From the NCBI GenBank assembly GCA_963823505.1, contig CAWGLY010000008.1, positions 440,574 to 504,573 of the forward strand: a stretch of DNA of 64,000 nt, written 5' to 3'. This DNA is from an uncultured Acidimicrobiia bacterium (GTDB lineage: Bacteria; Actinomycetota; Acidimicrobiia; Spongiisociales; UBA5794). This document shows positions 8,517 through 14,572 of this stretch, one piece after another (position 1 is the stretch's first letter; each line of letters begins with the position of its first letter). A program made the position numbers and the translations under genes. Under the pieces are notes generated by a model, which worked only from the letters and a program-made list of their open reading frames with translations, was not told the DNA's origin and searched no databases.

Positions 8517-10475
8517 ATGACACTCAAGCCCATTGACCTCGCCAACTTCGACACGTCCGTTGCATCCGTCTGACGACTTCTACCGCTACACCAACGGCGG
8601 ATGGATGGACGCCAACCCCGTGCCCCCCGAGTACTCCCGGTGGGGCTCCTTCAACGAGGTGACCGAGCGCAACGAGCAGCTCCTCAAAAGCCTCATGGAG
8701 GCAGCAGCAGACGCCAAGCACGCACCCGGGACACCGGAGCAGATGGTTGGCGACTTCTACGCCAGCGGTATGGACGAGGAGCAGATCGCGACGCTGGTAT
8801 CACGCCGCTGCAACCGTGGCTGGAGCGCATCGAGACTGCCGAATCCATCGCTGACCTTCGCGAGCTGGCCGCGATGTTCCATCCGAGCGGGATACGCTTC
8901 GTGTTCGGGATCGGTGTCTCGCCCGACTTCGACGACCCGGACAGCTATCTGCTGTACGTGGGCCAGGGTGGGCTCGGGCTCCCCGAGCGTGATTACTACC
9001 TCAGGGATGACGAGCGGTCGGTCACACTGCGCACGCAGTACGAGACCCATGTGGCCGCTCAGCTCCGCAATCTGGGGCAGAGCGACGCGTCGGCAGCAGC
9101 CGATGCGGCGGCGATCCTTGCGTTCGAGACCGCCCTCGCTGAGCCTTCGTACACCGCCGAACAGCAGCGAGACATCGACCTCATCGTCAACCGCCACGAG
9201 GTGACGCAGCTCCCGGACGTGATGCCAGGCTTCGACCTCACCGCGTACCTCGACACCGTCGGCGCCGGCTCGGTGACGGAACTGAACATCGACAACCCAG
9301 GATTCTTCAAGGCTGCAGCCGAGCTCCTCGAGCAGACGCCGATCGAGACGCTCCGCGCCTATGCACGGTGGCACCTCGTGCGATCGGTGGCATCGTCGCT
9401 GACGCCCGTCTTCGCCGACGAGTCGTTCGATTTCTACGGTCGCAAGCTGGGTGGTCAGCAGGAGCAGAAGCCCCGGTGGAAGCGGGTGCTGGCGATGGCG
9501 ACCGGCGATATCGGCGAACAGGTCGCTCAGCTCTACGTCGCCGAGGCGTTCCCTCCTGAAGCGAAGGCGCGGGCCGAGGAGCTCGTCGACAATCTCCTGG
9601 AGGCGATGACGGAGTCGCTGCACCAGCGGGACTGGATGGGCGAGGAGACCCGTCGGGAGGCACTCGCCAAGGTCGCCGGGTTCACCTACAAGATCGGATA
9701 TCCCGACGAGTGGCGCGACTACACAGGGCTCATCATCGATCGGGGCCCTCTGGTCGAGAACCGGTTGCGTGCCGCCGCCTTCGAATTCGAGCGGGATCTC
9801 GGCCGGCTGGGCAAACCGGTAGACCCTCACGAGTGGGAGATGCCGCCCCATGTCGTCAACGCGTACTACCACCCGTTGCGCAACGAGATCGTCTTCCCCG
9901 CCGGGATCCTCCAGCCTCCGTTCTTCTACGCCGATGCCGACGATGCCGTCAATTACGGCGGCATCGGCACCGTCATCGGCCACGAGATAACTCATGGTTT
10001 CGACGATATGGGCAGTCGGTTTGACGCCACCGGCCAGCTCAGGGACTGGTGGAGCGAGGCGGATCGTGCCGAGTTCATGCGCCGTGCCGAAGTGGTGGTC
10101 GAGCAGTACAACGCCTATCAGGTGTTCGCCGACCTCAACGTCAACGGCAAGCTGACGCTGGGTGAGAACATTGCCGACCTCGGTGGCGTGACCCTGGCGT
10201 ATGCCGCTTTGCTGCGCGCCCTTCCAGGACCTGACGTCGAGGAGATCGACGGCTTCACCCCCGCCCAGCGGTTCTTCCTGTCGTGGGGCACCATCTGGCG
10301 GCAAACCACCACAGACGAATGGCTCCGTCTCATCGTCCAGACGGATCCTCATTCACCGGGACACTTCCGTTGCAACGGGCCGCTGTCGAACTTCCCGCCC
10401 TTCGCCGCGGCCTTCGGCATCCCAGGAGATGCCCCCATGATGCGCGGTGCAGAAGCCCGAATAGAGATCTGGTAA
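8517..10475 (+). CDS. M13-family metalloendopeptidase (PepO/neprilysin-like), with two compensating frameshifts near the 5' end
   Basis: 'IDLANFDTSV', 'DDFYRYTNGGW', 'VNAYY', 'GHEITHGFDD' (HExxH), 'GENIADLGG'; reading moves between frames at ~8565 and ~8790. Confidence 0.9.
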
Positions 10476-10502
10476 CCCCGCCACGGGCACGCTTTCCGCT
10501 CC

Positions 10503-10568
10503 CCCTCTTCTTTCCCTGATTGGGAAGGGAGGATGACACCGGGTCCAGCCGCCAGGCCGGGGGGCGGG
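10503..10568. repeat. Palindrome plus 28-bp direct repeat, left flank of DUF559 gene
   Basis: ttccc-tgatt-gggaa hairpin, then gggtccagccgccaggccggggggcggg (10541-10568). Confidence 0.75.
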
Positions 10569-10600
10569 TCTCAGGTTCCGCCGTCGGGTGGTTGGGCTTG

Positions 10601-11001
10601 TCACCCCGCCGCATCGCGATCGCGGGGAATTCGTGTACGGCCGCTGGAACTTGCATACGAAGGTCGCGCCTCCAGCTCTTCGAGGATCAGACCGAGTATG
10701 TCTTCCAGCCGCTCGTACACGTCTTCGTTGCCGATCCGTACGACTTTGATCCCTGCGGAGTTGAGCAGTCGGTCGCGCCTGGCGTCTCTGCCTGGAGAGT
10801 GGGTCGGTCCGTCGATCTCGAGCGCCAGTCGTTTTTCGGCGCAGTAGAAGTCGAGGATGAACCGCCCCACGGGATGCTGGCGCCGGAACTTGTATCCGAA
10901 GAGGCGTCGTGCGCGCAAGGAACTCCACATCAGACCTCCGCATCTACGAGGTTGCGGCGGAAGTGCTGGGATCGAAGGAGGAGCCAATCGTGTTCGACCA
11001 T
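10601..11001 (-). CDS. DUF559 / Vsr-like endonuclease-domain protein (frameshift at ~10935)
   Basis: 'LMWSSLRARRLFGYKFRRQHPVGRFILDFYCAEKRLALEIDGPTH...DARRDRLLNSAGIKVVRIGNEDV'; the N-terminal 'RSQHFRRNLVDAE' is in another frame from ATG 11001. Confidence 0.85.
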
Positions 11002-11084
11002 AGGTTCCACGATGGCGCCTGGGTGTGACAGGTCTGCGGTGAGCTGAGGCCGAGACCCTCCCCGCCTCCGCCAAGCTCCGGCGT

Positions 11085-11190
11085 CCCTCCCGTGCTTCCC
11101 CTCCCTCGTAGGGAGGGGTCCGGCATCCCTACCCTCCCGTGCTTCCCCTCCCTCGTAGGGAGGGGTCCGGCCGCCAGGCCGGGGGGAGGG
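11085..11190. repeat. Two 40-bp direct repeats with 8-bp palindromes plus 28-bp direct repeat, right flank of DUF559 gene
   Basis: ccctcccgtgcttcccctccctcgtagggaggggtccggc at 11085 and 11132; gggtccggccgccaggccggggggaggg at 11163-11190. Confidence 0.85.
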
Positions 11191-11256
11191 TTTCGAGCCT
11201 GTGAACCACTCGACGGTGGTGGGTCGCTCTACGCGCTCGAGCAGCCGGAAGGTGCG

Positions 11257-12589
11257 CTACGACCCGGCTTCGGTCATGTAGGCGGCGATTGTGGGGAGGC
11301 CGGTGAGTTTGTCGTAGAAGAAGTCGTTGACGATGCGCGTCAGGTCGGCCCTGGCGGCTTCGGCGGCGACCGTTTGCGTGTCGGCATTTTCGCCCTCGGC
11401 GCCGTCTGTGATGGTGGCGCGGAGCCCGAGGAGATTGCGCACGATCTCGAGCTCGGCCTCCCCGTCGAGGGTCGCCACCACGGACAGGATGAGACCGTCC
11501 AGCTGAGCCAGCAGAGTCTCCTTCGTGATGGCGGTGCCGGGCTGCGAGGCCTCGTCGAGGGTTCGCACGACTGCCCCCACTTGATACAGCACGGCGGTCG
11601 GCTCGTCGAACAGCTCGCGGAGGTAGGCCGCTTCCTCGTAACTGCCGTTGAGCCGGAAGATGTTGTACATCCGCTTGGCGGCCTTGCCGTAGTTCTTGGG
11701 GTCCTTGGCGACGTACTTGTGGACTTCTTTTTCGAGCGCAGCGACGTATCCGTCGAGGGCGTCGCTCGACAGGTTGCTGACGAGCTTGGTGAACAGCGGT
11801 ACCGCATCCGCTTCGAGGTAGACCTCCTGGAAGTAGGGGTCGAGGTAGCCGTCGAGGGGCACGATGGATCCGTCCGGCGCTTCCCACGTGACATCGAGCA
11901 TGTTGCTGGCGTTGGCGACCTGGCCGCGCACGGGGTCGGCAACAACCCAGTCGAGCTTGCACCAACCCGGGTCGTCACAGGCCGCCTCCCACGAGATTTC
12001 GACGGTGTCGCCGTCGGGGGAGACCGCAAAGAAGCGCTGATTCTCGATGTCGCCAGGTGTCCAAGCGATAGGCGTGCCCTTGCGACAAAGGCGTTCGTTG
12101 CGCGTCACATCGGCGGGGTAGTTGCCGAACTTCACTTCGATGAGCCTGTAGGTGTCGCCCTCCATCTTTGCGAGCGCCTTGTTCCTGACCACTTGACCGA
12201 GCCGGCGGCAGGCCGCCTCCCTGGTGTCGGCTTTGATGTTGACCCGCTCGAAGTAGTCACAGTCGCCTGGGTACGTCTGCACCTTCGATTGCGCTGCAGA
12301 GCCGGATAGCGCCAATGCGGTTTCGACGTCTTCGGTGTTGTCCAGCCCGACCAACTCACCGACCTTGCGGAAGTAGCCGAGGTCTTCGGCGCTGAAGTCG
12401 AGCATCGTGACACGATGGCCGAACACGCCGGAATCGATGTCGACCACGACATCCGCGCTCTCCTTGGCGAGCGCCACTGCAGTGAGCCATTGCAGCGCTT
12501 CCACTTCGTTCAGCTCGACTCCGAGCCGCTGTGCCGACGAAGACGATGCGGTCCAGATCGGACTGTGCCCCTGCGCTGTCGTTCATCAC
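11257..12589 (-). CDS. Uncharacterised protein with Pol-beta-superfamily nucleotidyltransferase motif (frameshift at ~12530)
   Basis: 'LSGSAAQSKVQTYPGDCDYFE' fits hG[GS]x9-13Dh[DE]h; 'WCKLDWVV' could supply a third carboxylate; 5' part 'MNDSAGAQSDLDRIVF' follows an AAGGGGTGG RBS. Confidence 0.65.
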
Positions 12590-13169: not shown

Positions 13170-13293
13170 GGCATCAACCTAGATGGAGCACGCGACACAA
13201 GCAGATCGCGACGTGTCGATGCGGCGTCGGACGATGCCTGGGAGACGCAGCATCGGGGGCTACTCTGACCGGCTCAGAGAACGAGGAGGACCG

Positions 13294-14572
13294 ATGACCG
13301 ACGATCGAACACCTGACGACCCAGCGGATATGCCGGATGGGGCCGATGCCGGTGCGCGATGCCGGTGCTGGCGATGCCGGTGCTGGCGATGCCGGTGCTG
13401 GCGATGCCGGTGCGGGCGACGCAGCTCCACCTCCGCCTCCGCCTCCGCCTCCGCCCCCACCTCCGCCTCCGGGAGCGGCCGCAGCAGGTGCGGGTGCCGC
13501 TCCTGCCGCCAAGGGTACGAGCGGCTGGCTCATCGCCGGTTGGGTCGCCGCCGGTCTTGCCGCCATCGCCCTCGTCGTGGTGTTGATCAACAACAACGGC
13601 GACGACGAGACGGTGGCCGTGGACACCACCACGTCATCCTCAGTTGCCGAGACGACGACAACGGCTGGAGAGACGACGACGACCGCGGCCGGAGAGACCA
13701 CGACCACGGGCGCCGAGACCACCACCACGGTGGCTGAGACCACGACCACGGTGGCTGAGACCACGACCACAGCCGCTGGGGGTATTGGCGGCGAATGTGC
13801 GATCGAGAACCTCAACCTCCTCCAGGCAGGGGTGTTGACGGTGGCAACCGGTGATCCGGCCTTCCCGCCGTGGGTTGGTGACGATGACAACTTCGATGAT
13901 CCCGAGTCCAAGACCGGGTTCGAGGCGGCGCTCGTGTATGAGCTCGCCGCCACTCTCGGTTTCGAAGACGGCGACGTCACCTGGGTCCGTACCGGGTTCG
14001 ACGAGGCCATTGCGCCGGGTCCGAAGAACTTCGACTTCAACCTGCAGCAGTACTCGATCGATGAGACCCGCGACCAGGTGGTCGACTTCTCGGACCCGTA
14101 TTACGTCACGAGGCAGTCGCTGATCGCCCTCGCCGGGTCTCCGGTCATCGGCGCCACCACGCTGGCTGATCTCGTCGACGCCAACCTGGGCGCCCAGATC
14201 GGCACGACGAGCCTCAACTACATCGAGGATGTGATCCAGCCCAACAACCAGGCGTCCGTGTACGACACCAACGTCGATGCGATTTCGGCATTGATCGCGG
14301 GACAGATCGACGGCATCGTGGTTGATCTACCCACCGCGTACTTCATGACGGCGGTACAGATTCCCGAGCAAGGTGCCGAGGGGATCATCGTTGCGCAGTT
14401 TGCGACGCCGGCCCAGGAACCCGACGAGTTCGGGCTGCTGTTTGCGGACGGCAATCCGCTGGTCGACTGCATCAACCAGGCCCTGACCATCCTCCGGGAC
14501 GACGGGGTGCTGGATGCGCTCGAGGCGCAGTGGCTCGCCCAAGGCGGCAACATCCCCACCATCACCGAGTAA
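13294..14572 (+). CDS. Polar amino-acid ABC transporter substrate-binding protein with long low-complexity N-terminus (frameshift in repeat at ~13357)
   Basis: GAGGAGGA RBS + ATG 13294; TM helix, ETTTT linker, 'LTVATGDPAFPPW', 'GFEAAL', 'FDFNLQQYSI', 'VDFSDPYY', 'GAQIGTT'. Confidence 0.88.
13345..13471 (+). repeat. 15-bp tandem repeat (DAGAG x5) followed by CCTCCG poly-proline repeat
   Basis: gatgccggtgc(t/g)ggc at 13345 (13-nt copy), 13358, 13373, 13388, 13403; cctccg run 13427-13471. Confidence 0.85.

Follow-up and report, generated by a model that had tools for sequence, protein, structure and literature searches.

The DNA stretch analyzed here, referred to as the window, comprises 64,000 nt of the genome of an uncultured Acidimicrobiia bacterium (genome G000; 4.1 Mb, 65.6% G+C). 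It contains a gene for a DUF559 protein (PF04480, minus strand), situated inside a block of about 690 bp between two convergent genes, pepO and a gene of 415 amino acids (aa). The locus is a member of a widespread unit, undescribed as far as could be found, in which a small Vsr-like PD-(D/E)xK nuclease gene is framed by hairpin modules; no description of hairpin-framed DUF559 genes was found in the literature searched. It is highly probable that the association between DUF559 genes and two-hairpin modules is non-random. Each of the two small DUF559 genes of G000 abuts its own lineage-specific, mostly gene-less module family.

Read in the orientation of the gene (minus strand), the block begins with hairpin 1 (CCCCTCCC-TACGA-GGGAGGGG, present twice through a 47-nt duplication), followed by a weak hairpin 2 and a box termed the G-box (GGGGAGGGTCTC). 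After 42 nt the gene follows, and 26 nt beyond it come the C-box (GAGACCCGCCCC), hairpin 2′ (CCGGCC-TGGC-GGCTGG) and a degenerate hairpin 1′. The same arrangement was observed around the closest homologues, located on metagenome contigs L028 (67% identical) and L029 (64%), where hairpin 1, hairpin 2 and the G-box lie upstream of the gene, and the C-box, hairpin 2′ and hairpin 1′ downstream. The hairpin 2 stems differ in sequence, yet all of them pair (CCGCAGC/GCTGCGG, CCCGGCC/GGCCGGG, GCCGCCC/GGGCGGC and CCGAGCC/GGCTCGG). Contig L029 also holds a double-ended module copy without a gene.

Small DUF559 genes were patchily distributed, at 0-2 per genome, across 41 genomes belonging to the same order: G001 and G003 carried none, and G002 carried one, of another subfamily. 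Nearly all small DUF559 genes of the related genomes had C-run/G-run hairpins in their flanks, to which a second hairpin and a GGAGGGG box were often added, often in tandem. A strict module scan yielded 20 modules in the 63 kb around 21 DUF559 loci of related genomes and 10 modules, two of them at the window locus, in the whole 4.1-Mb genome G000, the module definition being partly derived from three of the scanned loci.

The association was also evident in a sample of 80 DUF559 homologue loci drawn from many phyla. At 69% of these loci a perfect stem of length at least 8 lay within 160 nt upstream of the gene, compared with 4% in control windows 360-520 nt away; the corresponding downstream values were 46% and 2%. 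Both flanks were joined by an exact inverted word of at least 12 nt at 32% of the loci, in contrast to 1.6% of mismatched locus pairs, and inverted words of 16-39 nt were recorded between the flanks of homologue loci. The typical end in other phyla reads CCCTCTCCCC-nnn-GGGGAGAGGG, then TTGGGGTGAGGG. The best homologues outside the lineage show about 50% identity and are scattered over many phyla. An earlier sequence-only reading of the window had raised the sharing of this hairpin architecture by other DUF559 genes as a point to be checked, and it was indeed found at L028, at L029, in related genomes and among the 80 cross-phylum loci. Longer proteins (about 310-490 aa), found in G000 (C5:1168170-1168361) and in most relatives, match only the C-terminal half of the DUF559 profile (46-108), and they form a class distinct from the small hairpin-framed genes.

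The features of the window locus are listed below by position, with the strand in parentheses where one applies.

8533-10475 (+): left neighbor, the M13 peptidase gene pepO, with Pfam matches to Peptidase_M13_N and Peptidase_M13; convergent with the DUF559 gene.
10476-10510: spacer on the pepO side, outside the element; contains GCTCCCCCTC, possibly a degenerate C-box.
10512-10526: hairpin 1′ of the module downstream of the gene, ttccc-tgatt-gggaa; degenerate.
10541-10572 (+): left copy of the direct repeat, 32 nt; hairpin 2 CCAGCC-GCCA-GGCCGG at 10545-10560, then G-box GGGGCGGGTCTC at 10561-10572.
10601-10930 (-): main DUF559 open reading frame (ORF), 109 aa, protein P0001; PF04480 match with an E-value (E) of 1.5e-25.
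10930-11001 (-): first 23 codons of the DUF559 gene, out of frame with the main ORF (MVEHDWLLLRSQHFRRNLVDAEV, then stop), as read from the sequence.
11052-11070 (+): C-box GAGACCCTCCCC, then GCCTCCG; the inverted partner of the G-box, on the upstream side of the gene.
11085-11171 (+): two exact 40-nt units with a period of 47 nt, at 11085-11124 and 11132-11171 (repeat search).
11098-11118 and 11145-11165 (+): hairpin 1, CCCCTCCC-TCGTA-GGGAGGGG, one per 40-nt unit (cccctccc-tcgta-gggagggg).
11163-11194 (+): right copy of the direct repeat, 32 nt; hairpin 2 CCGGCC-GCCA-GGCCGG at 11167-11182, then G-box GGGGAGGGTTTC at 11183-11194.
11198-11256: spacer on the side of the 415-aa gene, outside the element (sequence).
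11257-12504 (-): right neighbor, a conserved hypothetical gene, 415 aa as listed; no Pfam match.

All of the sequence features that the sequence-only reading had described at this locus were recovered. Both hairpins are present, the right one in two places; the left one is weak (10500-10578 folds no better than its shuffles, z +0.35) compared with the right module (z -4.4). The 28-bp direct repeat, GGGTCC(A/G)GCCGCCAGGCCGGGGGG(C/A)GGG, occurs at 10541-10568 and 11163-11190 as claimed and extends to 32 nt, of which 29 are identical (91%); within the 64-kb window its pattern matched at these two places, and 100 dinucleotide-preserving shuffles gave no match. The 40-nt unit is duplicated exactly, with the 47-nt period given for it, and the neighbors are convergent, pepO (+) ending at 10475 and the 415-aa ORF (-) at 11257. 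The label NTase for the 415-aa gene found no confirmation; this gene has no Pfam match at E <= 0.01.

The 28-mer corresponds to the hairpin 2 and G-box portion of an end module. Together with the duplicated hairpin 1, its far-right copy makes up an extra module (11132-11197), the best preserved one, which as single-stranded DNA folds at -24.4 kcal/mol (the z of -4.4 given above), a closing stem CCCTCCC/GGGAGGG enclosing both hairpins. The whole right flank (11048-11197) folds at -46.5 kcal/mol (z -4.7) as single-stranded DNA. The true symmetry of the cassette is inverted, and the 28-nt repeats are parts of two modules, not a target duplication. DUF559 is the sole ORF within the block, and no transposase of a known family is encoded there. 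An Rfam scan of 10300-11400 returned nothing near threshold; a scan for intrinsic terminators and sigma-70 promoters called none, and no T-tract terminators were present. Farther to the right, positions 13174-14040 of the window hold strongly repetitive coding sequence of low complexity on both strands (GDAGAGDAGAG, ETTTT repeats and a poly-proline run), at the start of a solute-binding-type ORF (13337-14572).

The family of repeats to which the window modules belong is dispersed, as had been supposed: about nine further loci were found in G000, most of them without a gene. Repeat copies were searched for with fuzzy patterns and blastn-short; nhmmer with the de-duplicated right-flank unit recovered few copies, owing to composition bias. 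Matches to the hairpin 2/G-box side were located at C5:1137, C6:348.0k, C8:148.5k and C4:78.1k, and matches to the C-box side at C5:1147, C5:1255, C9:21.3k, C6:348.0k and, weakly, C8:113.3k. These matches span 17-39 nt at 90-100% identity, and near-identical gene-less copies of the left 32-nt repeat lie at C5:1137421, C6:348064 and C8:148541. All scattered copies are intergenic, mostly between convergent genes, and the one at C6:347940-348105 is double-ended and gene-less, with a spacer of 42 nt. The C-box 17-mer GACCCTCCCCGCCTCCG occurs exactly at four sites of G000, including the window, and at one more with 1 mismatch.

The hairpin 2/G-box motif matched at 4 places in G000 and nowhere in 40 relatives, and reversed-pattern controls for the module motifs gave 0-1 matches. 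For the C-box 17-mer, the relatives yielded 0-2 matches per genome, a number near the control rate and mostly due to chance matches in coding regions. The repeat signal resides in the composite module and in the long matches, not in hairpin 1 alone. No match to the Y1/RAYT transposase family (PF01797) was found anywhere in G000, while control genomes did match. The genome-wide scan also picked up, at C7:128164-128221 of G000, a two-hairpin module that has no gene and is of a different sequence type (CTCCTCC...GGAGGAG, CTCGGCG-ctt-CGCCGAG, GGAGGGGG).

The second small DUF559 gene of G000 (C5:1506377-1506730; 117 aa) is intact. Within C5:1506377-1506905, a C-box/hairpin module comes immediately after it, and then a repeat of a second family (GGAGTGGSCTCGGCSGCTTTGGGCCGAGG), of which 9 copies (29-44 nt, 90-100% identity) were found in G000 and 0 in the 40 relatives. 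In G001 and G002, the congeners of G000, the genes on either side of the paralogue site are separated by 264-278 nt, compared with about 1010 nt in G000, the paralogue sitting in 730-750 nt that both congeners lack. Modules of both families occur together at C5:1137, where the intergenic region measures about 500 nt versus 150-190 nt in the congeners.

The claim that the window encodes a DUF559 nuclease was upheld for the domain: the PF04480 match scored 89.6 bits against a cut-off of 20.6 (90.1 bits in a genome-wide search). A second Pfam match, to PF18741, remained below its cut-off, and there was no match to the Vsr family. As assembled, the reading frame is interrupted: the PF04480 match begins only at profile position 21, and the N-terminal 23 codons (11001..10930) are out of frame. 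The TGA closing the N-terminal frame overlaps the ATG of the main ORF, and relative to the intact homologue P0003, which reads ...LVDTEMIMWSELRARRL... through the junction, one base is missing; the intact homologues P0003 and L029 both read through the frameshift point. An assembly error is more likely than recent decay, because the conserved pepO gene 2 kb away has the same kind of single-base defect, an apparent 1-nt deletion near 8790 (window 8780-8800, atcgcgacgctggtatcacg where ...acg gct ggt... is expected), whereas its orthologue in G001 is an uninterrupted ORF of 666 aa.

In an alignment of eight sequences that included the window protein, D56, E67, D69, H73 and D78 (P0003 numbering; the D in LDF, ExD, H and D) were invariant, and the window protein keeps the C-terminal tail specific to its subfamily. 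The proportion of nonsynonymous differences from homologues (pN 0.25-0.26) is far below that of synonymous ones (pS 0.70-0.77); for most of its history, therefore, the ORF has evolved under purifying selection. The nearest solved structure by sequence is PDB 3hrl (E 1.2e-15 to P0003).

An empty pepO junction in relatives had been considered in the sequence-only reading, and it was found in both congeners: in G001 and G002, pepO and the 415-aa gene lie back to back, separated by 72 and 37 nt, and the DUF559 block is absent. The gene nonetheless occupies the same site in a more distant relative. Contig L028 represents the same locus, with its DUF559 gene convergent on pepO as in the window, pepO 75% and the 415-aa gene 77% identical, and an extra luciferase-like gene. 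Distances of both flanking genes gave the unrooted split (G001,G002)|(G000,L028), and therefore the presence and absence of the block at the pepO site needs only one change. The flanking genes are near synonymous saturation (pS 0.48-0.61). If the copies in G000 and L028 are orthologous, the cassette would be old and retained, and compensating changes would have preserved its hairpins; separate insertions into this pepO site in both are possible. Since L028 shares the occupied site, the flanking genes are synonymous-saturated and a single change suffices, the window cassette has the look of a long-standing resident more than of a recent arrival, and the earlier description of it as a minimal mobile cassette is doubtful for this copy.

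Several further comparisons at this and the other loci were set aside. In the empty spacers, CCGGCGGGTCGAG of G001 and GAGGCGGGCTGAA of G002 were considered as target sites, with a loose resemblance to the G-box too weak to claim. Contigs L029 and L031 were rejected as reciprocal filled and empty pairs with G000, just one flank being syntenic in each. Among the gene-less loci and that of the paralogue, an empty-site comparison could be made only at C5:1137 and at the paralogue locus, which are syntenic in G001 and G002; the C5:1147, C5:1255 and C4 loci have different neighbors there, and the C6 genes are absent.

The intergenic site beside the 415-aa gene is a variable spot, because relatives hold different content there. 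In the closest relative found (L144:2569-3231; neighbor gene 85% identical), an AAA/ORC-like ATPase gene follows after low-GC DNA in place of pepO. Four contigs of metagenome and MAG relatives (L145:3827-4203, L146:2862-2967, L147:3824-3875 and L148:2160-2220) end 50-380 nt past the homologue of the 415-aa gene, in arrays of other hairpin-repeat families, TCCCCCGC..GCGGGGGA and GCTCCCCC..GGGGGAGC; the latter type resembles the repeats beside the DUF559 gene of G005 (L034). The 415-aa ORF itself has over 6000 homologues (6290 at E < 1e-30) in Acidimicrobiia, other Actinobacteria and Anaerolineae. These are about 440 aa long, and the true start is probably upstream of the listed GTG.

The most economical explanation of these observations would be that DUF559 acts on the repeats. 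The nuclease may recognize the module in its folded state, whether in a cruciform or in DNA that is single-stranded during replication, and nick or cut there, after which host repair or replication would copy, homogenize or spread the modules. The gene itself would be mostly vertically inherited at the pepO site and occasionally cleanly lost, and the result would be a partnership of the REPIN/RAYT kind with another enzyme at its core. Taken as a whole, this reading of the locus, a hairpin-framed DUF559 unit whose nuclease acts on its own module family, is put at a little under an even chance of being right. The interpretation offered by the sequence-only reading is partly supported, and none of the three outcomes that it had named as refuting was observed. 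A palindrome family of the REP/RAYT kind tied to DUF559 had already been suggested from the window alone; the association fits and the second gene repeats the pattern, whereas the role of DUF559 as cognate nuclease is something we infer.

A number of points weigh against a nuclease acting on its own modules. The co-occurrence of genes and repeats comes from one lineage (n = 1 genome, 2 pairings), and joint arrival as passengers would look alike. The two families have few copies, at about 10 and 9 loci, where REP/REPIN-RAYT systems reach hundreds, and hairpin 1 taken by itself (CCTCCC-loop-GGGAGG) shows no genome-wide excess over arms of equal composition. At the window, the left end folds poorly, the inverted match between the two ends is limited to the 12-nt box, no target-site duplication was seen in the sequence at 10510/10511 or 11197/11198, and the gene is frameshifted as assembled, with no uninterrupted full-length frame. 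The paralogue has modules on its downstream side only. The strict module definition drew in part on loci that were then scanned, and the literature searched held no report of DUF559 nuclease activity or of a recognition or cut site.

The modules might instead be an independent repeat family that serves as a landing pad, DUF559 being a free-standing homing-type selfish gene that cuts them and inserts into or between them, so that the modules would be the target and not the product. The double-ended gene-less copies (the C6 locus and L029) do resemble unoccupied targets, the pepO site is occupied in G000 and L028 and empty in G001 and G002, and Vsr-like nucleases such as I-Bth0305I act as homing endonucleases (PMC3239194, PMC2677866). 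Elements also pile up side by side, in the right flank of the window and downstream in L028 and L029, and in relatives this intergenic site holds arrays of hairpins from other families. However, no other spreading enzyme is evident, Y1 transposases being absent from the genome, and the tested motifs of both families, apart from chance-level matches to the C-box 17-mer, occur only in the genome with the matching genes. The single change that explains the pepO-site pattern makes repeated homing unnecessary, and this explanation is considered unlikely.

It is improbable that DUF559 is a host-serving repair, defense or toxin-like nuclease whose hairpins are regulatory or protective (transcript ends, mRNA stabilizers or protein-binding sites) and are reused through ordinary recombination, with no dedicated mobility. 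Such a role would agree with the purifying selection on the ORF, with one locus apparently kept across a divergence that saturates synonymous sites, with the position of the modules in intergenic DNA, mostly between convergent genes, and with the pairing of hairpin 2 being kept while its sequence changes. It is at odds with hairpins upstream as well as downstream of the genes, with the absence of T-tract terminators, with near-identical copies at unrelated loci that are missing from all relatives, and with whole blocks of 0.6-0.75 kb that differ in presence and absence. The distribution of DUF559, very patchy with 0-2 small genes per genome and with its best outside homologues spread across many phyla at about 50% identity, likewise speaks against it. 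An origin by chance or artefact, through accidental hairpins and repeats in G+C-rich low-complexity DNA or through sequence duplicated by the assembly, is effectively refuted. The genome does have 65.6% G+C and its assembly contains 1-nt indels, and hairpin 1 alone is no more frequent than control arms of the same composition; but no shuffle reproduced the 28-mer, the 17-mer recurs exactly at four sites and stretches of 29-44 nt at 9 sites with 90-100% identity, the reversed-pattern controls gave 0-1 matches, and the same architecture is seen in independent assemblies from many sources.

DUF559 is among the commonest bacterial domains lacking a function, and the hairpins that frame its genes are of a very common type of intergenic palindrome whose origin has hitherto not been known. 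If the nuclease and the modules form a working pair, DUF559 would gain a function, a second enzyme class would join the few systems that create and maintain repeat populations in bacteria, and a sequence- or structure-specific nuclease would be at hand with a defined, testable substrate. A broader proposal would make DUF559 proteins the enzymatic half of a second bacterial repeat-plus-enzyme partnership of independent origin, a counterpart of REPIN/RAYT, in which a Vsr-fold nuclease kept vertically at one locus would recognize a two-hairpin module and would both maintain and spread private gene-less modules in its genome; this is a minority possibility, somewhat on the doubtful side. If true, the function of DUF559 would be accounted for, as would the familiar CCCTCTCCC...GGGAGAGGG + GGGGTGAGGG intergenic palindromes across many phyla. 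The window is useful as a test case: two gene-repeat pairings share one genome, 40 relatives lack both repeat families or show them at no more than chance level, each gene has occupied and empty sites to compare, and P0003, a close homologue with an intact frame, has the same module.

When compared with known systems, the protein shares a related fold and catalytic core with the Vsr repair endonuclease; database pipelines name homologues "very-short-patch-repair endonuclease". It differs in having no adjacent cytosine methyltransferase and in matching the DUF559 rather than the Vsr family of Pfam. No Vsr gene is known to have repeat modules framing it. The DUF559 protein of Neisseria gonorrhoeae in PDB 3hrl ("endonuclease-like protein") is a structural-genomics entry without an assigned activity and is silent on mechanism. 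The Vsr-like EDxHD homing endonuclease I-Bth0305I (PMC3239194, PMC2677866), which together with Vsr has been grouped with DUF559 (PMC3424549), resembles the present case as a small, patchy, selfish nuclease gene with occupied and empty sites among relatives. In contrast, such genes are carried by inteins or group I introns and home into a single target in coding DNA, whereas the window gene is free-standing and intergenic, with hairpin inverted ends and gene-less copies at many sites. The only other appearance of DUF559 in the literature searched is in a tabulation of the gene families that predicted inversion targets are enriched for (PMC9881135).

Miniature inverted-repeat transposable elements (MITEs), Rickettsia palindromic elements and Correia elements are likewise short, structured, non-coding copies with inverted ends in intergenic DNA, and double-ended gene-less derivatives beside a gene-carrying version are a further shared trait. 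Unlike MITEs and transposons with terminal inverted repeats, the DUF559 unit has no transposase of a known family and no visible target-site duplication, and its partner is a nuclease not known for strand transfer.

In the REP/RAYT systems of Proteobacteria, a single-copy enzyme gene is flanked by a palindromic repeat that is also scattered gene-less through intergenic regions, each gene having its own family. Apart from copy number, the unit described here departs from them in its partner, a PF04480 Vsr-like PD-(D/E)xK nuclease in place of a Y1 HUH transposase, and in its module, a two-hairpin unit closed by a C-box/G-box stem. As PF01797 is absent from G000 and the genome thus has no Y1/RAYT transposase, it is not a REPtron in the strict sense. 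The likeness to REP/REPIN-RAYT lies in the arrangement: each DUF559 gene is flanked by copies of its own module, on both sides in the window and, for the paralogue, immediately downstream with family 2; two genes appear to correspond to two repeat families in one genome; and the gene appears to be vertically retained while its repeats are lineage-specific.

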